DNA of 64,000 nucleotides from an uncultured Chloroflexia bacterium (GCA_963768655.1 CAVYIM010000006.1:160001-224000); one strand, 5' to 3'; positions 16,036 to 29,739 are shown, counted from the stretch's first letter. The notes: generated by a model not told the origin, from the sequence alone. Made by a program: numbers and translations.

Positions 16036-19000
16036 GTGACAGTCGCGCCGAATGACTTCGTCCACTTGCACCTCCATTCCGAGTTCAGCCTGCTCGATGG
16101 GCTCGGGCGCATCAACGAGCTTGCCGACCAGGGATCGGCGCTCGGCTTCGACGCGATGGCGATCACCGACCACGGCGCCCTCTACGGAGCCGTGGCGTTC
16201 GTCCAGGCGACGACCGCGCGGGGCATCAAGCCGATCGTCGGGGTCGAGACCTACGTGGCCCGGCGAAGCATGCGCGACAAGGAGGGCAAGGCCGACAGCC
16301 AGCCCTTCCACCTCGTCCTGCTGGCCGAGAACTGGGAGGGCTACCAGAATCTCTGCCGTCTGATCACCGACGCCCATCTTGACGGTTACTACTACAGGCC
16401 GCGGATCGATCATGAACACCTGGCGAAGCATTCGAAGGGCCTGATCGGCCTGTCGGCCTGTCTCAGCGGCGAGGTGGCCAGGGCGCTCGAGGTCGACGAC
16501 TGGGACCTGGCCCGCAAGACCGCCGGCGACTACCGCGACATCTTCGGCCGGGACCGCTTCTTCCTCGAGTTGCAGGACCACGGCCTGCCCGACCAGCGGG
16601 TGCTCAATCCCAAGCTGCTCCGCCTCGCCCCCGAAGTCGGGCTCGACCTCGTCGTCACCAACGACCTGCACTACGTCCGCCGGGAGCAGCACGACGCCCA
16701 CGACGTGCTGCTGTGCGTGGGTACGGGCAGCAATCTGGACACGCCCGGGCGGATGCGGTTCGACTCGAACGAGTTCTACCTGAAGTCGGCGGCCGAGATG
16801 GCCGCGCTCTTCCCGGACAACCTCGACGCCATCCGTCGCACCCGTGCCATTGCCGAGATGGTCAGTTTGAAGCTGCCGTTCGGCCAGCTCCGGATTCCGT
16901 CATTCCCGGTCCCCGAGGGCGAGACCATCGAGAGCTGGCTGCGCAAGGAGTGCCAGGCCGGCCTGGCCCGCCGCTACGGCACCGTCACGCCCGAGCTCCA
17001 GGCCCGCCTCGACTACGAGCTCGATGTCATCTGCCGCATGGGCTACGCCGGCTACTTTCTGATCGTGGCCGACTTCACGAAGTTCGCCCGCGACCAGCAC
17101 ATCGCCATCACCGTCCGCGGCTCCGCGCCCGGGTCCATCGTGACCTACACCCTGGGCATCACGCCGGTCGACCCGATCCACTACCAGCTGCCGTTCGAGC
17201 GCTTCCTCAATCCCGACCGCGTGACGATGCCTGATATCGACGTCGACTTCGAGGACGGGCGGCGCGAGGAAGTCATCAACTACGTCAGCCGCAAGTACGG
17301 CGCCGATCACGTGGCCCAGATCATCACCTTCGGCACCATGCTCGCTCGGGCCGCCATTCGTGACGTGGCCCGGGTCGTCGGCATGAGCTACGGCGAGGGC
17401 GACCGCATTGCCAAGGCGGTCCCGAACCAGCTCGGAATCAGGCTGGACGAGGCGATCGAGATGAGCCCGGTGCTCAAGGAGATGTACCAGAGCGAGCCGC
17501 CGGTGCATCGCGTCATCGAATTCGCCAGGCAGCTGGAAGGCGTGGCCCGGAACGCCTCGACACACGCGGCCGGCGTCGTCATCAGCCGCGAGCCGCTGAC
17601 CGAGCTGATGCCTCTGCAGCGCGCGACCAACTCAGACGCGGTCATGACCCAGTACGAGATGCATGGCGTCGACGCGCTGGGCCTGCTCAAGTTCGACTTC
17701 CTGGGGCTCTCGAACCTGACCATCCTGCGCCAGGCGGTCGACCTGATTCGCGAACACCGCGGGCAGGAGATCGACCTCGAGAAGATCCCGCTCGACGACT
17801 CGAAGACCTTCGAGCTGCTGGCCTCGGGCGAGACGACCGGCGTGTTCCAGCTCGAGTCGGCGGGAATGCGGCGCTACATCCGTGAGCTCCGGCCGAGCAC
17901 TGTGTTCGACCTGGCGGCCATGGTCGCGCTCTACCGCCCCGGCCCGATGGACAACATCCCGGCCTACATCCGGCGCAAGCACGGCGAAGAGAAGGTTACC
18001 TACCTGCATCCGCTCCTCGAGCCATATCTCAATCGAACGTACGGCGTCTTCGTCTACCAGGAAGACATCATGTCCGCCTCGACCGCCCTGGCCGGCTTCA
18101 CCGGTCCCGAGGCCGACATGCTCGGCTACGCGATCCGCAAGAAGAAGGCCGCTCTCATGAACGAGATGCGCCACAAGTTCGTCACCCAGGCCGCCGAGCG
18201 GGGCGTCAAGCCGCAGGTGATCGACGCCGTCTTCGCCGCCTTCCAGCCCTTCGAGCGCTACGGCTTCAACAAGGCTCACGCCACCTGCTACGGGCTGATC
18301 GCTTACCAGACGGCGTACTTGAAGGCGAACTACACGGTCGAATACATGACCAGCGTCCTGACGGCTTTCCGAGACAACGAAGAGAAGGTCGCCGCCGCCG
18401 TCGCCGAATGCAGGCGCCTGGGCATCGAAGTCAGGCCGCCCGACGTCCACCGCTCGTTCGTCGAGTTCACGGTCGAAGACGACGCCATCCGGTTCGGCCT
18501 GCTGGCTGTCAAGAACGTCGGCGAGGGCGCGATCGAATCGATCATCGCGGCGCGTCAGGCCGATGGCGACTTCCGGTCGCTGGCCGACTTCTGCGCCCGG
18601 GTCGATCTCCGGCTGGTGAACCGGCGCGTCCTCGAGTCGCTGGTCAAGGTTGGCGCGATGAATCGGTTCGGGCATCCGGCCCAGCTGCTCGAGGCGCTCG
18701 ACGACGCGCTTGCCGCCGGCCAGGCCGCCCAGCGCGACCGGACCAGCGGCCAGACGGCGCTCTTCGACATGGGTTCGTCGCCGGAAGCCCTGGAGCGACC
18801 CCTGCCGGCGGTTCCCGAGGCGCTTTCTCGCGAACGGCTGCGCTGGGAGAAAGAGCTGCTCGGGCTGTACCTGTCGGAGCATCCGCTCGGCGCGCTGGCG
18901 GAGCAGATCGCCCAGTACGTGACCGCGTACTCCGGGGACCTCAAGGATGAGTCGCTCGATGGCCAGCGCGTCGTGATGGGCGGCATCGTCACCGGGCTGC

Positions 19001-20001
19001 GGACGGTGGTCACGCGGAGCAAGGAGACCATGGCCGTCGCCACGCTCGAAGACCTGCAGGGGACGCTCGAGGTGGTCGTCTTCCCGCGGATGTACGGAAC
19101 CTCCGGCGGCACGTTCGCGGAGGGCGCGATCCTGCTCGTGGCCGGCCGGGTCGACCATCGTGGCGAGGAGGCGTCGTTGCTCGCCGACGCGGTCTGGGTC
19201 TGGGAGGATGCCGCCGCCCGTGGCCCGGCGGCGATTGCCGGAGAAGTTGCCGCGGGGGATCGTGGGAGGGGCGGCAGCCGACGCTGGTCACCGGGGAGCG
19301 GCGCAGGGAGCGGCTCGGGGAGTGGCAACGGGAACGGTAACGGCGGCGGCAACGGGAACGGCTACGGCAACGTCCACCCGAAGCCCACCGCCGGCCCGGC
19401 TCCGGCCGCGCCGCCTCTGCCCATCACGCCGCCCGCGCCCGTCGCCCCCGTCGCGCCCATCGCCCCCGTCGCGCCCAGAGTTCGCGTCTCGCCGCTGCGG
19501 GGCGGTGGAGTGACCGTGCTCGATGCGCCGCCGTCACCCGCGCCGGGCTCCGCCGCGTCCCTGCCGCCCGCGCCGGGAGTGGCTGCGTCGCTGCCGGCGG
19601 AGCCCCTCTCGTCCGCGCCTGCCCCTAAAGACCTGGCTGCCCTGGCGCCCGACCGCGAGGAGCCGCCGCTGCCCGATGAGGCGCGAGACGTTGCGGCCCG
19701 TGCATCCGCGGCGCCCACGACCCCGCTCGAGGCTCCGGAAACGGGCGTCCTCCAGGTACGCTTCACCAGGGGCGCGGACACCGACCGCATCGTGTGGGCG
19801 ATGGAGGAGCTGCGGGCGATGCTCAAGGAACATCCCGGCTCGACACGCGTGGTCTTCCACATCCCGGGGCCCGGTGGAGCAACGCTGCCGCTCGAGATCC
19901 GCAGCGGCGTTGCCTACGACGCCGAGCTTCTCTCTGAGGCCCGTCGGCGCCTGGGGGAGGGTCTGGTCCGCCTCGAGCTCTCGGTCGGGGGCAGGGCGTG
20001 A
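16036..20001 (+). CDS. dnaE: DNA polymerase III alpha subunit
   Basis: PHP domain (HLHLHSEFSLLDG, AITDHG), MPDIDVDF, STHAAGVVI, GLLKFDFLGL, YGFNKAHA, OB fold; no intein seen. Confidence 0.98.
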   Translation: MTVAPNDFVHLHLHSEFSLLDGLGRINELADQGSALGFDAMAITDHGALYGAVAFVQATTARGIKPIVGVETYVARRSMRDKEGKADSQPFHLVLLAENWEGYQNLCRLITDAHLDGYYYRPRIDHEHLAKHSKGLIGLSACLSGEVARALEVDDWDLARKTAGDYRDIFGRDRFFLELQDHGLPDQRVLNPKLLRLAPEVGLDLVVTNDLHYVRREQHDAHDVLLCVGTGSNLDTPGRMRFDSNEFYLKSAAEMAALFPDNLDAIRRTRAIAEMVSLKLPFGQLRIPSFPVPEGETIESWLRKECQAGLARRYGTVTPELQARLDYELDVICRMGYAGYFLIVADFTKFARDQHIAITVRGSAPGSIVTYTLGITPVDPIHYQLPFERFLNPDRVTMPDIDVDFEDGRREEVINYVSRKYGADHVAQIITFGTMLARAAIRDVARVVGMSYGEGDRIAKAVPNQLGIRLDEAIEMSPVLKEMYQSEPPVHRVIEFARQLEGVARNASTHAAGVVISREPLTELMPLQRATNSDAVMTQYEMHGVDALGLLKFDFLGLSNLTILRQAVDLIREHRGQEIDLEKIPLDDSKTFELLASGETTGVFQLESAGMRRYIRELRPSTVFDLAAMVALYRPGPMDNIPAYIRRKHGEEKVTYLHPLLEPYLNRTYGVFVYQEDIMSASTALAGFTGPEADMLGYAIRKKKAALMNEMRHKFVTQAAERGVKPQVIDAVFAAFQPFERYGFNKAHATCYGLIAYQTAYLKANYTVEYMTSVLTAFRDNEEKVAAAVAECRRLGIEVRPPDVHRSFVEFTVEDDAIRFGLLAVKNVGEGAIESIIAARQADGDFRSLADFCARVDLRLVNRRVLESLVKVGAMNRFGHPAQLLEALDDALAAGQAAQRDRTSGQTALFDMGSSPEALERPLPAVPEALSRERLRWEKELLGLYLSEHPLGALAEQIAQYVTAYSGDLKDESLDGQRVVMGGIVTGLRTVVTRSKETMAVATLEDLQGTLEVVVFPRMYGTSGGTFAEGAILLVAGRVDHRGEEASLLADAVWVWEDAAARGPAAIAGEVAAGDRGRGGSRRWSPGSGAGSGSGSGNGNGNGGGNGNGYGNVHPKPTAGPAPAAPPLPITPPAPVAPVAPIAPVAPRVRVSPLRGGGVTVLDAPPSPAPGSAASLPPAPGVAASLPAEPLSSAPAPKDLAALAPDREEPPLPDEARDVAARASAAPTTPLEAPETGVLQVRFTRGADTDRIVWAMEELRAMLKEHPGSTRVVFHIPGPGGATLPLEIRSGVAYDAELLSEARRRLGEGLVRLELSVGGRA

Positions 20002-20162: not shown

Positions 20163-20373
20163 GGGCGGCGCCGCGCCTGACACGGCTCCTGCGCAACCCT
20201 TCGGCTCGACTCCCGGCTACAATGCGCGCGGCTGCCCCTGCTTGCTCGGCCGTGGTCGACGGGGCAGAGGGGGCAACCGACCCGGCGGAGCCGTCGGGAA
20301 CTCGGGACGACGGCGCCCCCGGGGGCGTCTCAGCGGAAACGTCGCTACCAGCCGGGATCGGGGACGTTTGGCA

Positions 20374-22182
20374 ATGAATGGGCAACAACCATCGCCGGGC
20401 CGAAGGGCCCATCCGGGGGTAGGGGGGACGGCAGGGAAGCGCCAGCGGTCTGTTCCGCCCGCGGTCGCTGCATTCTTCTCGGCCCTGTTTCCCGGGGCCG
20501 GGCAGGCCGTGGCGGGCAGGCCGCGCCGAGGGGCGATCGTGGCCATGCCATTTCTCGTGGTGGTGGCCGCTCTCCTTGTGATCGCCATCGTCGATCGCCA
20601 GAGCGTGGAGAACGGTGCCTTCAACCAGCAGTGGTTGACCAACCTGTTGTTCGTCGACATCCTGGCGCTCATCTACCATCTCTGGGCCGTTTTCAATTCG
20701 TACGTGCTGGCAAGCCGGGGCCAGCCCCGGACGGACCGCAGGAAGACCACCGCCAGGAAGTGGGCGGCTACGTTCGGTGTTCTGGTGATCGTCTCGGGAA
20801 CGGTGGTGTTCCAGCACGCGGCTCTCGCCTCGGTGGACATGGGCTGGCAGCACGATCTTTCATGCTGGTCGGCCCTGACGCCATGCTTCGCCAGCAGCGA
20901 CACGCTCGCTCCGGGCCAGACGATCGCGATGGACTCGAACGATCCAGATGATCAGCAGCTGGCCACCGATACGCCAGACGACACGGGTCCTGTTCCCTCG
21001 AACAGCCCGTCCTTCGACTCCAACGCGACGTTCGACATAAGCGCCCTGCCGTCGATCGCGACAACGCCCGACTCGGTGAACTGGGCTGCGGACGGACAGC
21101 TGAACGTGTTGCTCGTCGGCGTGGACGCAGGGCTCGGGGGCGGGCGCAGCACGGGCCTGAGGCCGGACACCATGATCGTGCTCCACGTCGACATCGCATC
21201 CGGTCGAGCGGCCCTGATCGGCATCCCGCGGAACACGATGTGCGTCCCGCTACCGCAGCAGATCGCGGTGCACTACTCCAGCAGCGTCAACGGCTGCCCC
21301 GCGTATACGTGGCCCTACATGCTCAACTGGCTCGCCAACGACGCGGGATGGAACCACCCAAGCTATTACCCGTTCTTCCAGGGCAGCGGCCTCGAGTACA
21401 CCCGCGCCATGACCGCCACCCAGGAAGCCATCGGAACGCTGACGGGCCTGACGATCGATGGTTTCGTCGTCATCAACCTGATGGGCCTGGTCAATCTCAT
21501 CGACGATGTCGGCGGGATCAACATCACCGTTCCAACTACGGTGGCCGACTACCCCTGCGGTCCGAAAGGCACGTTCCAGTCGAAATGGCGGGTCTGCGAC
21601 CTCAACCCGGGTGCTCCGGCCGGAAGCTCCAGCAAGGTCCACTACGGGTACGAGGTTCCCGAGGACTCGCCTACGGTGATTGCCCACATGATCGCTGATG
21701 CCGCCCAGTCAGGCGGGAAGCAATCGATCTCGTGGAGCTCCGGGGCCGACATAGCCTTCACCATCAAAGCCGGCGCGCAGCATATGGATGGGGATTGGGC
21801 TCTCGCATACGCCCGAACTCGCATCTACTCCAGCGACTACGACCGGATGATGCGCCAGCAGCTGGTTCTCAAGTCCATGCGCAACACCCTCGACCCGTGC
21901 ACGCTGCTGCCACAGATACCCAGCCTCGTCAACAACCTCGGCACGGCGTTCTGGACAAACATGCCACTAGGCGATGCCTCTCAGTGGGCGGGCATGGCCA
22001 AGTACATCGTCGGCGCCAACGTCAAGAGCATCACCCTCGACCCCAAGACGTTGGGGACCAACACCACCTACATCAACGCGACGTCCTGGGCCACCATCAA
22101 GAACCTCGTGGCCCACAGCCTGGACAACGTTCCTCCCGTAAGCGCGAGCGGCGGTGGCGGCGGGAGCGGCTTCAGCTGCTGA
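20374..22182 (+). CDS. LCP (LytR-CpsA-Psr) family cell-wall glycopolymer transferase
   Basis: N-terminal TMs with PGAGQ motif, LNVLLVGVD, RPDTMIV, IGIPRN, ALAYARTR, DYDRMMRQQ. Confidence 0.92.
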   Translation: MNGQQPSPGRRAHPGVGGTAGKRQRSVPPAVAAFFSALFPGAGQAVAGRPRRGAIVAMPFLVVVAALLVIAIVDRQSVENGAFNQQWLTNLLFVDILALIYHLWAVFNSYVLASRGQPRTDRRKTTARKWAATFGVLVIVSGTVVFQHAALASVDMGWQHDLSCWSALTPCFASSDTLAPGQTIAMDSNDPDDQQLATDTPDDTGPVPSNSPSFDSNATFDISALPSIATTPDSVNWAADGQLNVLLVGVDAGLGGGRSTGLRPDTMIVLHVDIASGRAALIGIPRNTMCVPLPQQIAVHYSSSVNGCPAYTWPYMLNWLANDAGWNHPSYYPFFQGSGLEYTRAMTATQEAIGTLTGLTIDGFVVINLMGLVNLIDDVGGINITVPTTVADYPCGPKGTFQSKWRVCDLNPGAPAGSSSKVHYGYEVPEDSPTVIAHMIADAAQSGGKQSISWSSGADIAFTIKAGAQHMDGDWALAYARTRIYSSDYDRMMRQQLVLKSMRNTLDPCTLLPQIPSLVNNLGTAFWTNMPLGDASQWAGMAKYIVGANVKSITLDPKTLGTNTTYINATSWATIKNLVAHSLDNVPPVSASGGGGGSGFSC

Positions 22183-22242: not shown

Positions 22243-22261
22243 TGGTGCCGACGGCGGGAGT
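22243..22261 (-). repeat. att site (duplicated 3' end of tRNA-Leu)
   Basis: Identical to 29653-29671, including the encoded CCA. Confidence 0.9.
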
Positions 22262-22312
22262 CGGCACGGATAGGGTCCGTTCGTGCTCAGGAGCACCCCG
22301 AAAAGGGCCAGT

Positions 22313-22335
22313 GTGTTCCCATGGGTGTTCCCATC
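22313..22335 (+). repeat. putative integrase arm-type site pair (left)
   Basis: GTGTTCCCATGGGTGTTCCCATC, identical to 29537-29559. Confidence 0.7.
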
Positions 22336-22361
22336 GCGTCCGGAAATGGCGCGCGGAGCCC

Positions 22362-23510
22362 CTACGACGTCCGTCTCAACGCACTGTCGACGCGGTCCGC
22401 CGCATCCCGCAGGCTCGCGTCCAGGACGCCGGTGTAGTGGTGTGTCATGGCCTCGGCGGCATGGCCCAGGGCCGCCATCGCTACGCGCTGGTGAACGCCC
22501 TGCGCCGCCAGGACGGTCGCGAACCCGTGCCGGAGATCGTGCAACCGGACATCGCCAATAGCTGCTGCCAGCATCGCGTCGCGGAAGTGGCGGTCGAGCG
22601 TGTTTGGATGCCAGGCGAAGAGTCGGCCGTCGATCGGTGCGGGCTGCGTTTCGCGCCAGGCGAGGTACTCGCGCACGGCCTCGACGGCGAGCGCCGGCAT
22701 AGCGACGGTTCGGACGCTGCTCGCGGTCTTCGTTTCCCGCAGCCGCGCACCCTGGCCTGGCACGCGGCCGTACTGGCCGTGCACCGTCAGGATCGCTGCC
22801 TCGAGATCGACGTCGCCGGCCCGAAGGCCGAGGATCTCCCCGCGGCGGAGGCCGCAGGCGCCCGCAAGCAAGACGATCGGGTAGAGCCTGGTCCGTGCGG
22901 TGGCGTCGAAGATCGCGCGGAGCTCGTCGGGCCCGATTGTCGGGACCTGCCGCTTCTCGGCCGCCGGAGGCGCGTCGACCAGGGCGGCGACGTTGCGCGC
23001 CACCAGACCCTGGGCCTGGGCATAGCGAAGGGCGGACGACAACCGAACCAACGTGTGAGCACCAGGGCCGCCCCAGGATCGGACAGCCGCACGGACGTCC
23101 TCGACCGTTAGTTCGTGCAGTCGGATCGCGCCGAGCGATGGGCGGATTCGTAGCTTCGCGTCCAACTCGTACGCCTCAAGCGTCAGTGGGCGGACGCGGT
23201 CCTTGCAGCCCTCAAGCCAGGAGTCGACAACCTCAGCTACGGTCGTATCGATCGAGCGCAACGAGACTCCCGACTCCTGCAGCTCGACGAGGTCGCGCAG
23301 AAGCTTCGTGCCGGCCCTTTCCGCCTCTCTCTTCGTCGGATACCCCGCCGTCCGGGGTCGTCGCCGCGTGCCGGTCTCGTCGACGTAGCTGCCCTGCCAG
23401 CGCCAGCGGCGCACACGGAACTTGTCCGTCGACTCCACGACGGAGCCCTGGCCGCGGTGGCGGGTTTGCTTGCCATGCTTGCCGTTTGGGTTCGGCATGT
23501 CTTCCATCAT
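22362..23510 (-). CDS. int: tyrosine recombinase/integrase
   Basis: GLRRGEI, KT, RLHDLRH, LGH and HYT catalytic residues; N-terminal RGQGS arm-binding region. Start is one of 23510/23507/23498, after GGAGG. Confidence 0.95.
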   Translation of the reverse strand: MMEDMPNPNGKHGKQTRHRGQGSVVESTDKFRVRRWRWQGSYVDETGTRRRPRTAGYPTKREAERAGTKLLRDLVELQESGVSLRSIDTTVAEVVDSWLEGCKDRVRPLTLEAYELDAKLRIRPSLGAIRLHELTVEDVRAAVRSWGGPGAHTLVRLSSALRYAQAQGLVARNVAALVDAPPAAEKRQVPTIGPDELRAIFDATARTRLYPIVLLAGACGLRRGEILGLRAGDVDLEAAILTVHGQYGRVPGQGARLRETKTASSVRTVAMPALAVEAVREYLAWRETQPAPIDGRLFAWHPNTLDRHFRDAMLAAAIGDVRLHDLRHGFATVLAAQGVHQRVAMAALGHAAEAMTHHYTGVLDASLRDAADRVDSALRRTS

Positions 23511-23673
23511 CCTCCAGTAGATTGGCGAGACGGTCGCGGCGCGCATACACGACGCGCTTGCTGATACGCGTGCAGGCTTCGGGGTGCCGACGCATCAGGA
23601 CGCGGACGTGGGCGGGCGGGATGCCGAGCTCGCCGGCGACCTGGGCGACCGAGAGCAACGGTTGATCGGTCAT
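23233..23673 (-). CDS. excisionase-like HTH protein
   Basis: LLSVAQVAGELGIP helix-turn-helix start; ATG overlaps the repSA stop (ATGA); lies between rep and int. The frame runs on into int. Confidence 0.65.
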   Translation of the reverse strand: MTDQPLLSVAQVAGELGIPPAHVRVLMRRHPEACTRISKRVVYARRDRLANLLEDDGRHAEPKRQAWQANPPPRPGLRRGVDGQVPCAPLALAGQLRRRDRHAATTPDGGVSDEERGGKGRHEASARPRRAAGVGSLVALDRYDRS

Positions 23674-25136
23674 GCAGAACTCGTGGACGGACCCGATGGC
23701 CCTGATCTTGCACTGAGCGTCACCTGCACCCGCAGGCGCCGTCGAGGATCCACCGACTTGATGACCGTACTGGACCTGGCACTGACTCTCAATGTCGGGC
23801 TCGCTCGAAAGCTCGCCGCCACCGCGCGCTCGGCCGGGCTCAAGCCCGATCCGGCGTAGTGGAAGCTCCGCCGGATGACGACCTGGTCGCCGACGGCCCG
23901 GGCACGGATCTGAGTGAGCCAGGGATCGGCCTGGGCTCGATACTGCGCCCGGACGGCTCGTAGCGCTCCGAACGTCACCGAGTAGCGTCGGGCCTTGGTC
24001 AGGAAATGACCACGAAAGCCCAGGCTGTGGGCCCAGCGGGGGCTGATCCGCCAGGCTGAGCGCATCAGGGCCCGAGCATGATCGGATAGGTCGGCTCGTT
24101 CGATCACTCCCTCAACCCGGATCCGTCGATCGAGACCACCACCGGCTTGGGCGTCCTTGGTGGCGTATTTCGCGAGGTAGCCCGCGACGCCGGCTCCCTG
24201 CCCGTCGCCGGCGCGCGGGCTACCGGTGTTCAGCGGTCTCGTGTCGATCTGGTCACCCCAGCGGATCATGACCTCTCGACCACCCGGTCCCGCCACCGTG
24301 ACCGCTACGCGCGCCGCGGTGCGGGCGACGGCTCCCGCTAAGCGCTCCGCCGTCGCTCCTCCCGTCGGCGCGGTGTCGGGACCGTCGGGGCCGTCGAGGC
24401 GGATGACCGCATGGAGGTGGACCGATCCACGAGCCTGGAACTCGGCGACCTTGGCATAGGCGACACGGACCCCGGTGCGCAGGGCCGCAACGCTAAGTCC
24501 GCACAACGCCGCGAGCTCGCGCGGCAGGTACGTGACCGTGCGCCGCCAGAGAGCTCCGAGATTCGCGTTCCACAAGGCCGCGGCCTCGTAGTCGTAGCAG
24601 TCCGGACAGAGGGCCTGGCCGATCCGTGGATCGTTATCGGCATGAGGCTCCATACAGCGGAGCGAGACGCCATGCTCGCAGGTAGCAAGACCACCGGGCT
24701 CGCAGGGCCGTTCGCCACCAGCGTCGACGACCCTGCGATGCACCGTGCCGAACGATGGTGCGGTCAACGTCGCGAAGACGAGCGGGTGCGAGGCAACCGA
24801 GGGCGAGACGCCTCGGGCCTCATCACCCGCCAATCCAGCCGCCACGAGGAAGTAGGCGTCGCGGCGATACCGCTCGGAGCAGGGGGGACATCGTGACTCG
24901 CGTCGATTGCCACAGGCAACCAGAACGAAGCCTGGAGCCTCCGCTCTGGTCGACCGCCGGGCAAGGACTGCGCCTGTCCTTGCCGAGACGGCGACCGCAT
25001 CGCCTTCGAGGCGGATCGGCGACGTGCACCCGCCGGTCCGCCGGATCAGCTCGACGACTGCAGGTGCCCCGGAGCCGTAGCGGCGTGAGAGGACGGCCAG
25101 GGGCTCGAGCGGGGATGGGGACGCAGACTCGACCAC
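23670..25136 (-). CDS. repSA: RepSA-type rolling-circle replication initiator (HUH)
   Basis: GCTSPIRL, CGNRRESRCPPCSERY, FATLTAPSFG, EFQARGSVHLHAVIRLDG (HUH), YLAKYATK, LGFRGHFLTKARRYSVTFG. Confidence 0.9.
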   Translation of the reverse strand: MVESASPSPLEPLAVLSRRYGSGAPAVVELIRRTGGCTSPIRLEGDAVAVSARTGAVLARRSTRAEAPGFVLVACGNRRESRCPPCSERYRRDAYFLVAAGLAGDEARGVSPSVASHPLVFATLTAPSFGTVHRRVVDAGGERPCEPGGLATCEHGVSLRCMEPHADNDPRIGQALCPDCYDYEAAALWNANLGALWRRTVTYLPRELAALCGLSVAALRTGVRVAYAKVAEFQARGSVHLHAVIRLDGPDGPDTAPTGGATAERLAGAVARTAARVAVTVAGPGGREVMIRWGDQIDTRPLNTGSPRAGDGQGAGVAGYLAKYATKDAQAGGGLDRRIRVEGVIERADLSDHARALMRSAWRISPRWAHSLGFRGHFLTKARRYSVTFGALRAVRAQYRAQADPWLTQIRARAVGDQVVIRRSFHYAGSGLSPAERAVAASFRASPTLRVSARSSTVIKSVDPRRRLRVQVTLSARSGPSGPSTSSA

Positions 25137-25145
25137 GGCCTACTC

Positions 25146-25571
25146 CTAGGCGGTCTGCTCGGGGCGACGGAGCTGCTGGGGGACCTGGTTCTTCGGGATG
25201 GCGGCGCGAACCGCCGTCGCCCGGAACGAATAGGCGAGCCTTGGCCGAGAGCCCGAGACGTCCACGTAGGCCGTCACGGTCAGCCCCTCGAACGCGACCG
25301 CCGGGAACGGCGAACCTGAAGGCGCCTGCGGCAGCACAGGCGGCGTCCGCGAAGCGATCTTGACCCGGACGACCTTGGTTCTCGCGTCGGGATCGGCGTC
25401 GAACACCGAGATCACCCATACAGGCAACCCCGAGTCGCGATCGTGGGCCTGGACCTTCTGCTCGCGCGTCGAGGCCTCGAAGTCGACGACCTGTTCGACG
25501 CCGCCAACGGCATATGCCCCGTGCGGAAATGCCTGGTCCATGCTGATGGGGATGTGTCTACCAAGCGCCAT
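25146..25571 (-). CDS. Pra-like plasmid replication, integration and excision activator
   Basis: FPHGAY...V.DFE...Q..D..SGLPVW...DADP...VKI....PPV...FEGLTVT.YV....RLAYSFRAT, as I recall for the AICE Pra-like family; AAGGAG RBS; directly upstream of repSA. Confidence 0.8.
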   Translation of the reverse strand: MALGRHIPISMDQAFPHGAYAVGGVEQVVDFEASTREQKVQAHDRDSGLPVWVISVFDADPDARTKVVRVKIASRTPPVLPQAPSGSPFPAVAFEGLTVTAYVDVSGSRPRLAYSFRATAVRAAIPKNQVPQQLRRPEQTA

Positions 25572-25587
25572 GTCTGTCTCTCCTTGT

Positions 25588-25612
25588 CTGATTTCGACCA
25601 CACCGAAATCAG
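25588..25612. promoter_or_regulatory. perfect inverted repeat upstream of the pra-like gene (operator candidate)
   Basis: CTGATTTCG-N7-CGAAATCAG abutting the RBS. Confidence 0.6.
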
Positions 25613-26009
25613 CCGACGCGTTGGGCACAGCTATCGCCGGAAGCCCGCGTCAAGCGGCTCGAAAAGTGGGGGCGACCCTCGGGTGTTTCCCGGATGCCTT
25701 ACCGGGACCTGGGCCGGTCGCCGAAGAGGACGCTAGGCCGACGGATCGGGAGCGTCAAGGGGTTCAGCGTACGATTCCACGTACCATTTGCGGCACACGG
25801 TGGCCGCGCTTGCCCCTGTCAGCGCACGAACGCCATTCCTGCTGTCGCCGGCAGCCGGCGGCCACGAACCTTGATCGCAGCGGACATGGGACCGCCCAAG
25901 GCGCAGCCGTCGGCCTACCCGAGGCCGCGAACCTCGAGGGTGATGACTCGGCAGATCGCTGCGACCGGCGAGTATGGCCCGGGACGAGGCCACCGGGCGA
26001 GTTCGCCTC

Positions 26010-26627
26010 TTATCGCCGCGATCCGCGGTTGGGAAGCACACGGAGGGGGCGGGGGCTTGTTACGAGTTTCTCTACTGCATCAAGGCTGTCCCGCTCCTTC
26101 GATCCTCGCCTTGGCGCAGTCGAACGACGGATTGGCACCCGAGGGCGTCCTTGTCCAGGCCGACTAGATAGGCGGGTTGCGGGGGTCTCGCACGTAGAAA
26201 GCAAGGCGCCGACTCGCTCGGGCCGGCCATCAACCGTCGCAGAGATGGTGTAGGCATCGAACTTCGGGAACTTGATCTGCGTCTCGAATGCGAGTGGTAG
26301 ACGCATCTTGGCGCCCTTTTCCAACGTCGGCGGTCGACCAGTCTTGAACGCCAACGAGAACGACGGTACAACGGCCGTTCCGTCCGTATCTTCGAAGGTG
26401 ACCTCAAGGGTGTGCTGGTCGTCGGTTTCCAGGTAAGGGATCAGTACCCCGCACGCAATGTGCAGCGGGATTGCCCCTTCAAGGCTAGTCGCGAAGATAT
26501 GGTCCCACGCCCCGCCCATGATGTAGAGCTTCCCGTTTAGGACCTCTGCGCGATCGGCCAGTATGAGAAACTCGACATCGGCGTGAGCCACCGGCAGCCC
26601 GGAAGCTCGGGACCGTGAAGTAGGCAT
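26010..26627 (-). CDS. DUF6941-like protein (3' end possibly frameshifted; alternative stop at 26164)
   Basis: VEFLILADRAEVLNGKLYIMGGAWD...FP..DAYTISATVDG. An alternative frame gives a more typical end, RRLAFYVRDPRNPPI*. Confidence 0.7.
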   Translation of the reverse strand: MPTSRSRASGLPVAHADVEFLILADRAEVLNGKLYIMGGAWDHIFATSLEGAIPLHIACGVLIPYLETDDQHTLEVTFEDTDGTAVVPSFSLAFKTGRPPTLEKGAKMRLPLAFETQIKFPKFDAYTISATVDGRPERVGALLSTCETPATRLSSRPGQGRPRVPIRRSTAPRRGSKERDSLDAVEKLVTSPRPLRVLPNRGSRR

Positions 26628-26649
26628 TCTAGGTACCTTCGTATCACTG

Positions 26650-26668
26650 GTGTAAACTTCGCTTACAC
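26650..26668. promoter_or_regulatory. palindromic operator in the divergent DUF6941/toxin promoter
   Basis: GTGTAA-N7-TTACAC in an AT-rich 74-bp spacer. Confidence 0.55.
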
Positions 26669-26701
26669 AGTATACAGCACGCTGAACACGGAGGCGGGGC
26701 C

Positions 26702-26980
26702 GTGGCAAGACCGTTCATCGATGAGTTGCGCTTGGCGGGCGCGGAGGATGAACTATCGCGGCACCAGGTGTCCGTCGACGAGGCGCTGGAGGTATCTTGG
26801 AATACTCCGCGGTTCTTCCGGGACAAGGTTCAGGGTCGGCAGCTAATGATCGGAAAGACGGACGGAGGAAGGTTGCTTACAGTCGTAGTTGAACCGACCG
26901 ATACACACGGGGCATGGGACGTCGTCACTGGCTGGGACTCAAGCCAGGGAGAAAGAACAGCATGGCAAAACGCAAAGTAG
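26702..26980 (+). CDS. BrnT-like (RelE-fold) toxin
   Basis: 92 aa; RHQVSVDEALEV, IGKTDGGRLLTVVV, VVTGWD...ER pattern; GGAGG RBS. Confidence 0.75.
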   Translation: MARPFIDELRLAGAEDELSRHQVSVDEALEVSWNTPRFFRDKVQGRQLMIGKTDGGRLLTVVVEPTDTHGAWDVVTGWDSSQGERTAWQNAK

Positions 26981-27438
26981 CGCCCTCCGGGGACCAGAAC
27001 GACATGGACCTAGAGCAAATCGACGTCGAACTCAGAAACCCGAGCGTGGTCTTGTCCGTCCGCCTCGACGGCGACACGGCCAAGGCGCTCCATCAGCTCG
27101 CTCGCAAGCGTGGCGAACGCGTATCAGAGGCACTTCGCGAGGCGGTCGTCGCCTGGGTCGCGTCGGCAGCCGCGGAAGCCGAACCCGTCTATCGGGCGAC
27201 CTACCTCAACAAGGTCGTGGCTGTCAGCAGCCACTCGGTCCGAAATCGAGGAACTTGGGCAACAGCAACGCCCGTTCGAGTCTGGCCTACCAGAGGAAAC
27301 CTGGCGGACCTCGTCGGCCGCCGCACAACCGCTCTTGCGAACCGCTTAGGCGCGACGGCCCCGGCGTGGCAGCCCAACGTCAACCCTGACCTCCAATTTG
27401 TGAGGACGGGCCGTTTCAGGCAGGACAAGAACGGCTAG
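26962..27438 (+). CDS. ribbon-helix-helix antitoxin with C-terminal extension
   Basis: VLSVRLDGDTAKALHQLARKRGERVSEALREAV (RHH); overlaps the toxin stop. Confidence 0.7.
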   Translation: MAKRKVAPSGDQNDMDLEQIDVELRNPSVVLSVRLDGDTAKALHQLARKRGERVSEALREAVVAWVASAAAEAEPVYRATYLNKVVAVSSHSVRNRGTWATATPVRVWPTRGNLADLVGRRTTALANRLGATAPAWQPNVNPDLQFVRTGRFRQDKNG

Positions 27439-27447
27439 CGGCGGCTC

Positions 27448-28050
27448 CTAGCCGACGAGCTCCGTGATGTCAGGGTCTGCCCAAAGACGATAGAGGCCAA
27501 CGGTGCGGCGAGCCGGGTGGGGCCACCAGGATCCCACCAGTACCGCGACGCTCACCTTCAGTGGCAGAGCGGCGTTCTTGGGCCAGTCGACCGCCCGAAC
27601 GGAAGCAGTCCGGTCGGCGAATTCAGCGACCTGCCTGCCCCGGTCGTCGAAAAGCCTGAGCCGGCGGGGACGCCCATGGCTTCGTTCAAGCGCCCACAAC
27701 GACCCTGCATCGGCCCGCATCAGCTCAACGGGGGGCACAGTGGGAAGATCCGAGCTGAGGCGAAGCCTGTCGGGCGCAAGGACGAGTTGGAGCAACTGTC
27801 TCGGTCCTCGATGCCGAAGCTGCCGAGCCGCCCATGCCGCCGAAGCGACCGCGAGTGCGAGCACCACAAGGTCGAGGAGGTTCGGGTGAGCGAGACCGGC
27901 CACTCCAGCGACCGCCAGGACTGCCGCAATGCCGACCGCCGAAGAGAAGTTGTACCAGCTGAGTCGCGGTGGCACCCAGGTGGCGGTAACGGTGGCAGTC
28001 CATGCGGGGCAGTCGTCCGGTACACCCTCCCAGCCCGCGTCCGAGAACAT
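27448..28050 (-). CDS. hypothetical two-TM membrane protein
   Basis: GAGGAA RBS before MFSDAG; two hydrophobic helices followed by a beta-rich soluble part. Confidence 0.55.
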   Translation of the reverse strand: MFSDAGWEGVPDDCPAWTATVTATWVPPRLSWYNFSSAVGIAAVLAVAGVAGLAHPNLLDLVVLALAVASAAWAARQLRHRGPRQLLQLVLAPDRLRLSSDLPTVPPVELMRADAGSLWALERSHGRPRRLRLFDDRGRQVAEFADRTASVRAVDWPKNAALPLKVSVAVLVGSWWPHPARRTVGLYRLWADPDITELVG

Positions 28051-28423
28051 GGGCACTTCCTCACCCAGGATGTTCTTGGTCATGAGCGTGTGGTGGAGGG
28101 ACCGCAGCCACGCCCTGATCCGGCCGGGCTCGTCCTGAAGCGTTGGTTTACTCATCGTGAACCTCGGCGTTCATGGATGCTGTCCATCAGGCTAGCGGGT
28201 GCACAAGTACTCCGTCGGCCTCGATCTGCTGATGCCCTCCCCGATCGAGTGATCGGAGAGAACCACGGACGAGAGCTAACGCGTCATGCGGAGCGCACCA
28301 AGCGCAGCGGTGGCCTGGCGCCGCCCATCGTCACCAGGACGCGGCCCGGTAGAGACGTGGGATCCAGATCCCCGACGAGCGGGTTAGCCTTGGAACCGAC
28401 TCCTCTCGCGCCCACCAATTCCC

Positions 28424-29374
28424 TCAAATCCCTCCACTCGCCGTAACGCCGGCGCGAAGCGTCGACCAGAGTGTTTGACATTCATTGGGATCGAGCCCAC
28501 TTGTCCAAATGTGGATGTGCTGGCGACCTCTTCCGGCGACACGCAGGACCGGTCCGCGCTTCGATTGCTCGGCGCTCGCAAAATAGGACCAGGGCAACCA
28601 CGAGTCTGGCAGGACCAAGTAGCCGGTCCTGTACACGGCCAGTTCGCGGCTCCGGTCCTGGCGCTCTCCGATCGTCGATAGCGCTGCCATTAGCCACGGA
28701 AACGCCAACAAGAAAGCCGCCACGACGAGACCATTGGGCGTCCAAAGTGGGTCTTGAAGAGCGAACGCGCAAAGGCCTATTGCGACGCCCGCGACCAACA
28801 CCTTCCACCCAAACTCACTCGCCCGGATCTGCACCAGCGTCCACGTTGACACTCGACCCATGCTGAACGTCAGGACCGGTTGGCCCGCGTCCAAGGGCAG
28901 AATCGGTTCCTGGGCTGGAAGAGGCTCACCGAGCAACCGCTCCAAGACCTCTCGCTGCCCGGCCCCAAGCACTCGCAGTGGGATAAGTAGCGGTGGGCAG
29001 CAATGCTGGGGGATCACAAGAAAGCCACCCTTGGCGAGCGGCCGGCCAAAGCGCGTCGCAGGGAAGCGGCGCGGCTGTGAGCCCTCCGACTGAACAGACA
29101 CGGCGCCAGGGCTCACGACAATTCTTGTCTCTGAACGCGTCCGCAACGCATTTCGGACGATCAGGATCAGCAGCGCGGCTACGTACAACATCCCCAGTCT
29201 CGCCGGCTCGGCCGGTGGCGTAAGGCATACTAGGATCAACGCGACGACCAGGACCATGAGGCGACGGTTTGTGCCGCCGAACCTCAGACTGGCTCGCAGG
29301 CGCTCCGCCATGTCGAGTCGATAGGCCAGTTCCACCCGGTCGCCTGCCTCGTTCGCCAAGTCGCCAGTCCCCAT
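28424..29374 (-). CDS. hypothetical membrane protein with a duplicated 2-TM + soluble (YcxB-like) unit
   Basis: Two pairs of TM helices, each followed by a short beta-rich domain; resemblance judged by eye. Confidence 0.55.
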   Translation of the reverse strand: MGTGDLANEAGDRVELAYRLDMAERLRASLRFGGTNRRLMVLVVALILVCLTPPAEPARLGMLYVAALLILIVRNALRTRSETRIVVSPGAVSVQSEGSQPRRFPATRFGRPLAKGGFLVIPQHCCPPLLIPLRVLGAGQREVLERLLGEPLPAQEPILPLDAGQPVLTFSMGRVSTWTLVQIRASEFGWKVLVAGVAIGLCAFALQDPLWTPNGLVVAAFLLAFPWLMAALSTIGERQDRSRELAVYRTGYLVLPDSWLPWSYFASAEQSKRGPVLRVAGRGRQHIHIWTSGLDPNECQTLWSTLRAGVTASGGI

Positions 29375-29536
29375 TCAGATGGGAGGAAAACCACGGGCCA
29401 CGATCATACAGACCGGCGGCCTGGCCGAATTGCCTCCTGGTCAAATCGGTTGCCCTGCGCGTGAAAGCCATCGACAAGGATGGACGTGGTTGCATTCGAC
29501 GGCAGTCCAGCGAGCATCCTGGCGTCCCCGCGCCGG

Positions 29537-29559
29537 GTGTTCCCATGGGTGTTCCCATC
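29537..29559 (+). repeat. putative integrase arm-type site pair (right)
   Basis: GTGTTCCCATGGGTGTTCCCATC, identical to 22313-22335. Confidence 0.7.
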
Positions 29560-29652
29560 TCCGCCGGATTACGGCAGGAACGGGTCAAATGGGACCGCTT
29601 CCAGGCCCGATTTGAGCACGAATCGGGCGTTATCGAGACAGGGGGAGGGGGT

Positions 29653-29739
29653 TGGTGCCGACGGCGGGAGTTGAACCCGCATGACCTCACGGCCACTCGA
29701 TTTTGAGTCGAGCGCGTATGCCAGTTCCGCCACGTCGGC
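29653..29739 (-). tRNA. tRNA-Leu (CAA)
   Basis: GCCGACG acceptor stem, CTCGA-CTCAAAA-TCGAG anticodon arm, long variable arm, GGTTCAACTCC T-arm, encoded CCA; 87 nt. Confidence 0.97.

Follow-up and report, generated by a model that had tools for sequence, protein, structure and literature searches.

What kind of genetic element occupies positions 22243-29671 of CAVYIM010000006.1:160001-224000, a stretch of 64,000 nucleotides from the genome of an uncultured Chloroflexia bacterium (GCA_963768655.1)? Within the window, as this whole 64-kb stretch is called here, a pra-like gene, repSA, a xis-like open reading frame (ORF), and int are arranged beside a tRNA-Leu(CAA) gene in the manner of pSAM2 and related integrative and conjugative elements of actinomycetes (AICEs). 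The initial annotation, made from the sequence alone, described a minimal AICE-type replicon without transfer or repressor genes in a host that is probably not an actinomycete. AICEs, together with their RepSA/Pra module, have been regarded as peculiar to actinomycetes and as linked to the TraB-mediated transfer of double-stranded DNA in mycelia. Our reading, to which we assign a probability of roughly 70%, is that 22243-29671 is an integrated and probably still functional site-specific integrative rolling-circle replicon, one of a family found in abundance in a single Chloroflexota genus, which is represented by metagenome-assembled genomes (MAGs) labelled Limnocylindrales.

The limits of the element were given by the exact 19-bp direct repeat TGGTGCCGACGGCGGGAGT (repeat family D16), which occurs only twice within the 64 kb, at 22243-22261 and 29653-29671. 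The latter copy, the attL core, is identical to the last 19 nt of the tRNA-Leu(CAA) gene (29653-29739, minus strand), a host gene and the integration target, which was detected using ARAGORN and matched Rfam RF00005 with 58 bits. The former, the attR core, is a copy of the tRNA-Leu 3' end and forms the distal boundary. No second tRNA gene was found within the window using ARAGORN. The tRNA-Leu(CAA)/sigma-factor locus was present in 49 of the 50 other genomes of the host genus, and the tRNA terminated in the identical 19-mer in all 29 genus loci examined. The site was empty in 21 of these 29, where a convergent gene of the LCP (LytR-CpsA-Psr-like) type ends approximately 50–220 nt from the tRNA 3' end; one of the remaining loci had a gap of about 1.1 kb, five had no LCP gene within 1.5 kb (two of which hold a RepSA element), and two were too short. 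In the empty-site relatives, the tRNA 3' end stands at the position of attR, beside the LCP gene, whose stop codon in the window lies 61 nt from the distal 19-mer. As this stop is close to the distal 19-mer and the site is empty in relatives, the 7.4 kb represent an insertion exactly between the repeats; 22243-29671 forms a discrete unit, 7.4 kb long and bordered by 19-bp cores, inserted at the 3' end of tRNA-Leu(CAA). The att sites proposed in the initial annotation were thus borne out by the exact repeats and the empty sites.

Inside each end of the element, two tandem copies of GTGTTCCCAT (repeat D1) were found. The int-proximal pair (22313-22344, copies at 22313 and 22325) lies 51 nt from the core, and the tRNA-proximal pair (29537-29568, copies at 29537 and 29549) lies 94 nt from the core. 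All four copies of this 10-mer in the 64 kb are inside the element ends and in a single orientation, and by their layout, the pairs are arm-type integrase sites flanking an attP core. The position and spacing of the int-proximal arms were kept in loci L010/L122/L137, L011, and L012, as well as in at least 10 metagenome loci with the same int, and the tRNA-proximal arms had an equal arrangement in L010/L122/L137, L133, and L123. Among elements with the same Int in other species, the arm-to-core distances of 51 and 93–94 nt were maintained. Between the end of int and the attR core lie 100 nt.

The flanking DnaE (first 1073 aa) was 91.5–93.3% identical to, and syntenic with, that of L010, L011, and L012, which are labelled Candidatus Limnocylindrales bacterium, Chloroflexi bacterium, and uncultured Chloroflexia bacterium, respectively. 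Judged by this gene, the host is a Chloroflexota chromosome and not an actinomycete, as had been suspected in the initial annotation. It was described as a soil or peat Chloroflexota, and public sequencing runs gave no habitat evidence either way. The assembly is MAG-like (9 contigs, 88.6% complete) and carries signs of indel errors, and the GC content of the cargo half (0.60–0.66) is below that of the surroundings, two points in favour of an assembly or binning artefact in which actinomycete DNA was joined chimerically to a Chloroflexota contig at the repeats. However, the GC content of the core module (0.67–0.69) equals that of the host, and the same element type, with its 19-bp core and arms, stands between the same tRNA-Leu and LCP/DnaE genes in the independent assemblies L010, L011, L012, and L133 and in about 10 metagenome contigs. 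The flanks are also collinear with the empty sites in 21 of the 29 relatives, so the chimerism that the initial annotation had allowed for is not seen at the att sites, and we regard such an artefact as scarcely credible.

The int gene (22362-23546, minus strand) encodes a tyrosine integrase of 394 aa with arm-binding, SAM-like, and catalytic domains (PF00589, 1.7e-21; PF14659, 2.9e-9; PF14657, 8e-4; phrog_1 integrase, 1.5e-62). Its catalytic motifs are intact (LRRGE at 233, HDLRH at 336, LGH at 360, and HHY at 369), and Int relatives of 91–94% identity occupy the same tRNA-Leu site. The repSA gene (23670-25136, minus strand) encodes a rolling-circle replication initiator of the HUH class with 488 aa (PF20199, 1.9e-131). 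Its match to PF20199 (439.7 bits) was above the cut-off of 34, whereas the match to NF041486 (395.9 bits) was below the equivalog cut-off of 700; on these profile scores, it is therefore a member of the RepSA family and not an equivalog of pSAM2 RepSA. Motif 1 reads FATLTAPSFG (121–130), and the HUH motif (H240-L-H242) and the catalytic Y320-L-A-K323-Y324 (Y-x-x-K-Y) were conserved in 64–65 of 65 aligned RepSA proteins. Int, RepSA, the xis-like ORF, and the pra-like gene are all encoded in uninterrupted frames on the minus strand, as the initial annotation had stated. A search of the PDB by sequence retrieved no meaningful solved relative of RepSA, of the Pra-like alignment, or of the BrnT-like cargo ORF described below.

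The labels given to the two smaller genes held in part. The xis-like ORF (23233-23673, minus strand, 146 aa) lies on the same strand between repSA and int, and its likeness to excisionases of the helix-turn-helix (HTH) type is confined to the first 69 residues or so (23467-23673), as the remainder overlaps int in another frame. Residues 1–69 weakly matched phrog_66, "excisionase and transcriptional regulator" (E 0.0026), and the comparison with the HTH_17 excisionases of sister elements gave an hhalign probability of 39%. Neither the ORF nor its N-terminal 67 aa alone had a Pfam or NCBIfam match at E ≤ 0.01 (HTH_17/TIGR01764 excisionase), so position and the phrog_66 match speak for the label and the domain databases do not. 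In a six-frame check with a host codon model, the annotated frame scored highest for every gene except the xis-like ORF over its full length. Genes were called by this best-of-six-frames rule; a stricter host-codon filter had dropped RepSA and the cargo.

The pra-like gene (25146-25571, minus strand) encodes 141 aa when read from Met20 of a 160-aa ORF (25146-25628), and M20 is the conserved start in the alignment. Its match to NF051478 (SCO3933_fam) reached 19.1 bits (E 0.0011), under the cut-off of 80, and similarly weak matches were obtained for 17 of 19 family members. In S. coelicolor, the Pra homologue of an AICE remnant is SCO3933, according to the part of PMC8584621 consulted. Distant homology was nevertheless indicated by the comparison of the Pra-like alignment with true SCO3933-family proteins of actinomycete loci (hhalign probability 83.7%, E 8e-6) and by language-model neighbours, 29 of 30 of which were named "Plasmid replication, integration and excision activator". 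The designation as pra-like is accordingly retained in the sense of a distant relative, the match to the family profile itself lying under its cut-off.

None of the 11 ORFs between the repeats (nine larger ones and two without any family) matched FtsK_SpoIIIE (PF01580), GntR, or NUDIX. TraB, Spd, and Kor are thus lacking in the element, as the initial annotation had noted, and the same applies to Pif (Nudix), which is present in the sister loci L025, L027, L031, and L035. The TraB search was controlled with textbook AICE loci of Nonomuraea (L039-L047, L056, and L088), which encode GntR, an SCO3933-family protein (Pra), FtsK-like TraB, a membrane protein (weakly EccD-like), a small ORF, RepSA, and Int. 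The TraB cluster was found in 29 of 47 Actinomycetota loci compared with none of 35 Chloroflexota loci, and a hidden Markov model (HMM) of TraB, applied to loci with at least 4 kb of upstream sequence, recovered 25 of 35 and 0 of 23, respectively. The best Chloroflexota ORF in this search had an E-value of 0.089, while that of the host FtsK was 3.5e-23. Judged by its gene content, the element family has no FtsK-like TraB or other recognisable transfer gene and is not conjugative; because no such gene is recognisable, the window element is classed as an AICE-related integrative plasmid or as an element resembling integrative mobilisable elements (IMEs).

Transfer might be provided from elsewhere. 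The initial annotation had considered a satellite or mobilisable element in need of a helper, which would excise and replicate alone and be transferred by a conjugative element or phage located elsewhere, with RepSA doubling as the relaxase. The small size, the combination of Int with a rolling-circle replication (RCR) initiator, and the lack of transfer genes agree with this, and the patchy distribution and module exchange described below imply movement between cells. Precedents are also given in the part of PMC5704250 consulted: the relaxases of 118 of 144 streptococcal IMEs are akin to RCR initiators, with 35 of these IMEs lacking a coupling protein, and ICEBs1 mobilises Rep_1 plasmids. However, the host genome contains no candidate helper: the chromosomal ftsK is the sole PF01580 locus, and there was no match to AAA_10, T4SS-DNA_transf, or TraG-D_C. 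The 51 genomes of the genus each had one strong FtsK match, additional FtsK-like matches were few, and none of PF01580 lay within 30 kb of RepSA, the nearest being 34 kb off and under the cut-off. AAA_10 was found in none of the 51 at E ≤ 1e-5, a figure to be read with the facts that PF03135 (the Gram-negative VirB4 family) was not searched and that MAGs lose plasmids. A viral vehicle was not indicated either, as RepSA alone retrieved no relative in IMG/VR, and the RepSA alignment retrieved three loci at 42–45%, none of the Chloroflexota clade. With no TraB, VirB4-like, or VirD4-like gene in the host genome, no AAA_10 in the genus, and no viral link, the dependence on a helper was not supported, and we consider it unlikely.

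Two proteins with extra FtsK domains were seen in the genus, one in a 1477-aa ORF with two domains (G101:C4:10559-12124) and one in a 670-aa ORF (G062:C25:6654-7235), neither on a contig with RepSA. They are the only conceivable translocase "helpers" observed there.

The relatives of RepSA were retrieved from species-representative genomes, and the best 80 of 104 were analysed as 79 loci. Among these best loci, 32 belonged to Chloroflexota, with RepSA identities of 48–87%, and 47 to Actinomycetota, with identities of 37–48%. RepSA was found in 28 of the 50 other genomes of the host genus, with up to seven matches per genome. In a sample of the phylum comprising 400 other genomes from 217 genera, none of the 377 genomes outside the host family had RepSA. 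Within the family, 2 of 60 sampled genomes had a match, one from the same genus and the other, a fragment of 25.7 bits, from outside it. In a quick maximum-likelihood tree of 65 RepSA proteins, 22 Chloroflexota sequences and that of the window stood on one side of a branch with an SH-aLRT support of 99. According to the tree and these samples, the Chloroflexota RepSA proteins are one clade confined to one genus. The most likely history suggested by these sequences is that the pra-repSA module passed once from Actinomycetota to this genus or its ancestor and then radiated, exchanging recombinases, which agrees with the cross-phylum acquisition proposed in the initial annotation.

The second proposal made there, an undescribed family of small elements, also agreed with the data. 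With tblastn, the pra ORF (pra160) was recovered from 30 of 34 Chloroflexota loci; for two of the four others, the sequence upstream is missing. Three recombinase types accompany the pra-repSA pair: a tyrosine Int encoded on the same strand, a tyrosine Int in convergent orientation together with an HTH_17/TIGR01764 excisionase, and a large serine recombinase. Elements of 5.5–11.4 kb are delimited by att repeats of 17–54 bp at tRNA-His, -Lys, -Ser, -Pro, -Thr, -Arg, and -Leu genes. Some sister elements of the serine type carry Nudix, XRE/DUF5919, and HD genes in common with AICE loci of Acidimicrobiia.

The host genome itself has three RepSA loci, on contigs C6, C3, and C9. At L008 (G000:C3:510186-513955), pra-repSA lies beside tRNA-Lys(UUU) with another tyrosine integrase, which is 29% identical. 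At L009 (G000:C9:287272-294716), it lies beside tRNA-Arg(UCG), with 17-bp repeats 7.4 kb apart and a truncated serine recombinase. A second Chloroflexota RepSA subclade (L032 and L034; genomes G076, G080, G088, and G089) is about 50% identical to the RepSA of the window and scores higher than it against the Pfam model, at about 500 bits, and L032 and L034 have no detectable pra160 homologue upstream. Short matches to positions 171–229 of the RepSA model (20–27 bits) came from ORFs of about 263–278 aa (G014:C45:3208-3330 and in G075, G079, G080, G092, and G102), which are not RepSA and may represent an unrelated protein with a small domain in common.

Signs of mobility were obtained from a metagenome contig and from the distribution among hosts. 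In the contig L135 (4429 nt), positions 21-1962 align with the window from 24131 to 22243 (end of RepSA, xis, int, arms, and core) at 86%, and positions 1944-2037 align with the window from 29671 to 29578 (core and the inward-facing part of the opposite end) at 90.5%. The overlap between the two alignments falls in the 19-bp core. This junction is the attP topology in a relative of the window element, formed by an excised circle or a head-to-tail tandem. The tRNA-Leu site is empty in the closest hosts, G063, G076, and G093 (DnaE 97.4, 97.3, and 95.2% identical to that of the window), and occupied in nine other hosts with DnaE identities of 88.8–93.8% and Int identities of 91.4–94.3%; in none of the nine host comparisons was Int less conserved than DnaE. 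The RepSA proteins of the same-site relatives were 80–84% identical, and the nearest to that of the window (87%) were from elements with other integrases at other tRNAs. Presence at tRNA-Leu does not track the relatedness of the hosts, and these identities point to movement between species and to module exchange.

Several observations weigh against the reading of the element as a functional replicon of a distinct family. The assignment of Xis is weak as judged by the profile matches, no promoter was found in a consensus promoter scan, and no repressor or origin was identified in the element. The L135 junction can be explained by a head-to-tail tandem instead of a circle, and a gapped arm-core-arm pattern was found in none of the metagenome contigs; L135 was missed by this pattern because the exact arm 10-mers are absent on one of its sides. 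Terminal overlaps that would indicate circularity were found in none of 18 whole-contig loci. Of 20 public sequencing runs, none contained more than 0.07 of the sampled words, and four gave scattered contigs of relatives with no interpretable junction. The genomes compared are MAGs, which often lose plasmids, and the RepSA tree is unrooted, was built from the best 80 of 104 loci with 13 split or short rows dropped, and depends on a query-biased sample. RepSA-Int loci without TraB also made up 10 of 35 in Actinomycetota, so that the loss of tra is not peculiar to the Chloroflexota lineage. Finally, the RepSA frames on C3 and C9 are split by frameshifts or stops, pointing to decay. Assembly indels may be an alternative cause of these interruptions because the host ftsK is split as well.

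That gene (G000:C7:169445-171275) is divided into two frames inside the motor domain, and the same split was seen in the few-contig genomes G098 and G099. The recurrence suggests that these assemblies contain indel errors, and frameshifts in the mobile-element genes of the host genome should not be taken for pseudogenes unless the reads have been checked.

The TraB-less loci of Actinomycetota and the interruption of two of the three RepSA copies in the host genome would suit a defective remnant of a TraB-bearing AICE, that is, a deletion derivative that is inherited vertically and decaying, a case that the initial annotation had left room for. However, no interruption is seen in the four core frames, nor any loss of the catalytic motifs. 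The Chloroflexota relatives are not TraB-bearing (0 of the 23 testable loci), and neither these loci nor the RepSA-bearing genomes of the genus contain a source of TraB. Members of the family are inserted at no fewer than seven different tRNA genes between precise att repeats, the arm sites are conserved, an attP-type junction was found in L135, and the nearest relatives have empty sites. A remnant of this kind is very unlikely in our view, and we retain the reading of an integrated and probably still functional replicon.

For such a replicon, the following life cycle can be proposed. With the small HTH protein in the role of Xis, Int would recombine the two cores into a circle of 7.41 kb carrying attP in the order arm-core-arm. 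RepSA would nick an origin, which probably lies within the conserved pra leader or close to it, and start rolling-circle replication, and the Pra-like protein with its predicted OB fold would aid replication or activate the operon, as Pra does in pSAM2. Int would then return the circle to tRNA-Leu. The variable half of the element, 4 kb long, carries the cargo.

The leader (25572-25800, minus strand) is a conserved non-coding stretch of about 230 nt upstream of pra, and it was alignable in 12 of 16 sister elements; the alignment drew on the window together with L010, L012-L022, L029, L036, and L038. Its sequence includes a TTGACG-17 nt-TAGCGT motif and two GGTACG repeats separated by about 12 nt, and on this conservation, it may hold a promoter, an operator, or an origin. 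A structured RNA was considered and rejected, as no Rfam family was matched and the fold z-score was −0.66. Terminator-like sites were as frequent as expected (4 seen compared with 4.0). An apparent ORF family upstream of pra ("c5", 20 loci) matched no family and was discarded as the translated shadow of the conserved leader. In six-frame ORF lists, the leader appears as a false conserved "protein" of the opposite strand, for example, at 25694-26167 (plus strand) in the window.

The predicted structure of the Pra-like protein gave a lead to its function. The AlphaFold2 model, built from an alignment of 29 sequences, was all-beta with a pLDDT of 84.7 and a pTM of 0.77. Its comparison with the PDB using Foldseek gave a list consisting almost wholly of proteins with a fold of the oligonucleotide/oligosaccharide-binding (OB) type, none of which reached E ≤ 0.001. 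The top match was 2k5d, SAG0934 (E 0.076, probability 0.90, template modelling (TM) score 0.38–0.47), followed by the small single-stranded DNA-binding protein (SSB) of S. coelicolor (probability 0.92–0.97, TM 0.49–0.53 on the target). According to the parts of PMC3542172 and PMC12614216 consulted, SAG0934 is a HelP homologue identical to Orf22 of Tn916, HelP serves as a helicase processivity factor, and the replication of ICEBs1 requires HelP and an RCR relaxase. On the strength of the model, the initiator may have OB-fold partners in the proteins of the Pra family, a lead and not a finding. Pra of pSAM2 is described as a transcriptional activator. A literature search found no work tying pSAM2 to an OB fold, and PMC11797042 was rejected as a source, as it concerns the plasmids pSAM270 and pSAM301.

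A bolder proposal can be put forward tentatively, although we regard it as doubtful. RepSA and an OB-fold Pra would constitute a two-protein rolling-circle replicon and the unit that crossed from Actinomycetota. Pra would be an accessory factor similar to HelP or SSB, acting in helicase processivity or the handling of single-stranded DNA, and not, or not only, an activator of transcription. Together with any site-specific recombinase, this pair would form a self-sufficient integrative plasmid, which would have radiated through a genus of non-mycelial bacteria and would still be moving between species without a conjugation gene of its own or a detectable helper, by a route undescribed for AICE-type elements (e.g., transformation, vesicles, or transduction).

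The remaining half of the element contains five cargo genes. A DUF6941 protein of 232 aa (26010-26708, minus strand) matched PF22091 (1.8e-14). A putative BrnT-like toxin of 92 aa (26702-26980, plus strand) is weakly supported by PF04365 (E 5.1e-4, 20.7 bits, cut-off 34.5) and had no PADLOC, PHROG, or NCBIfam match; its PDB matches (ubiquitin rows) were discarded as repeat artefacts with no passing stretch. A ribbon-helix-helix (RHH; CopG) protein, a putative antitoxin or repressor (26914-27438, plus strand; PF01402 RHH_1, 24.9 bits, cut-off 20.5), overlaps the end of the BrnT-like ORF. They are followed by a 235-aa protein with a hydrophobic stretch (27448-28155, minus strand; hydrophobic windows at residues 68–111) and a 316-aa membrane protein (28424-29374, minus strand; hydrophobic windows at 32–78 and 187–236). 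Neither of these two had a match in Pfam, NCBIfam, PADLOC, or PHROGs; for the 316-aa protein, a language-model neighbour with YcxB in 28% of its members may serve as a lead. A defence role of the cargo was rejected, as no PADLOC match was obtained for seven proteins. None of the five cargo proteins was shared by any of the 34 related Chloroflexota loci, and relatives at the same tRNA-Leu site carry other cargo, namely, extracytoplasmic function (ECF) sigma factors, an ABC transporter, or an XRE regulator with a pentapeptide-repeat protein. A toxin-antitoxin pair is therefore not a trait of the family, and with the BrnT match below the Pfam cut-off, the stabilisation by such a pair suggested in the initial annotation was not upheld.

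Two neighbouring genes on the attR side also showed features of their own. The DnaE homologue (16036-20001, plus strand) has a C-terminal extension of about 250 residues of low complexity, rich in Gly, Ala, and Pro, in which the identity to relatives falls, from 91–93% over the first 1073 aa to 81–85% over the full length. The LCP gene beside attB (20242-22182, plus strand) is fast-evolving, with 33–65% identity where that of DnaE is about 90%, and it is found as two or three tandem paralogues in several relatives (loci L011, L133, and L141-L144 compared).

Limnocylindria are a widespread, largely uncultured group of soil and freshwater. The replication–integration core thrives in a second phylum without TraB in any of the members examined, so that it would be a viable mobile element alone and able to cross phyla. 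The series of 5.5–11.4-kb elements with three interchangeable recombinases and defined tRNA attB sites may provide seeds for integrating vectors or small replicons in Limnocylindria. The predicted OB fold of the Pra-like protein suggests, as a testable idea, what Pra does in AICEs generally, and the family raises the question of how integrative plasmids without transfer genes spread.

The element was compared with known systems. AICEs are operationally defined by the joint presence of Int, Rep, and Tra (in the part of Ghinet et al. (2011) consulted). A recombinase beside the att site (PF00589, 1.7e-21) and a replication protein of the RepSA type, which the definition admits beside the RepAM and Prim-Pol types, were found, and Tra, a protein with the FtsK/SpoIIIE domain (PF01580), is absent; by its gene content, the window element does not fall under this definition. 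Among the features that te Poele et al. (2008) give for AICEs, insertion at a tRNA gene's 3' end by way of short att identity segments, with attP directly downstream of int, was found here as in pSAM2, whereas a GntR/XRE regulator is absent from the window element, which has the RHH protein only (XRE occurs in some sister elements), a Nudix hydrolase (Pif), which most but not all AICEs have, is likewise absent, and the host belongs to Chloroflexota instead of the actinomycetes. The element also resembles pSAM2 in the order pra ... repSA-xis-int on one strand, in the HUH and Y-x-x-K-Y motifs of RepSA, and in a partner protein of the Pra/SCO3933 family, but it is without TraSA/TraB, Spd, KorSA (GntR), and Pif (Nudix). 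Unlike in the Nonomuraea-type loci, pra directly adjoins repSA, with no tra/spd block between them. A literature search at the level of abstracts found no link of AICE, RepSA, or pSAM2 with Chloroflexota.

Elements with Int and Rep and no tra gene were also reported by Ghinet et al. (2011) and correspond to the RepSA-Int loci of Actinomycetota. These cases are sporadic and are interpreted as leftovers in the part of that source consulted, whereas the Chloroflexota lineage is wholly tra-less and multi-copy, occurs in 28 of 50 species genomes, and has precise att sites and an attP-type junction. Streptococcal IMEs, as described in the part of PMC5704250 consulted, are similar in being small, with a tyrosine or serine recombinase, a rolling-circle initiator, no mating-pore genes, sometimes a toxin-antitoxin pair, and variable cargo, and an integration/excision module of its own without mating-pore genes, as in IMEs sensu Guedon et al. 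(2017), is present in the window element. The IMEs described there differ in their phylum and in their initiators, which are Rep_trans/MobT, Rep_2, and PHA00330 and not RepSA, and they have known helpers, namely integrative and conjugative elements that encode a TcpA coupling protein, whereas no helper was found for the Chloroflexota element. NicK and HelP of ICEBs1, and Orf20 and Orf22/23 of Tn916, offer a further parallel in that an RCR initiator is encoded beside a small OB-fold protein (predicted here), but there is no sequence similarity, and the structural match was not significant (E 0.076, TM 0.38–0.47). Taken together, these comparisons suggest that the element probably represents a new lineage of integrative rolling-circle replicons derived from AICEs, which is restricted to one genus, lacks TraB throughout, has interchangeable recombinase modules, and is probably still mobile.

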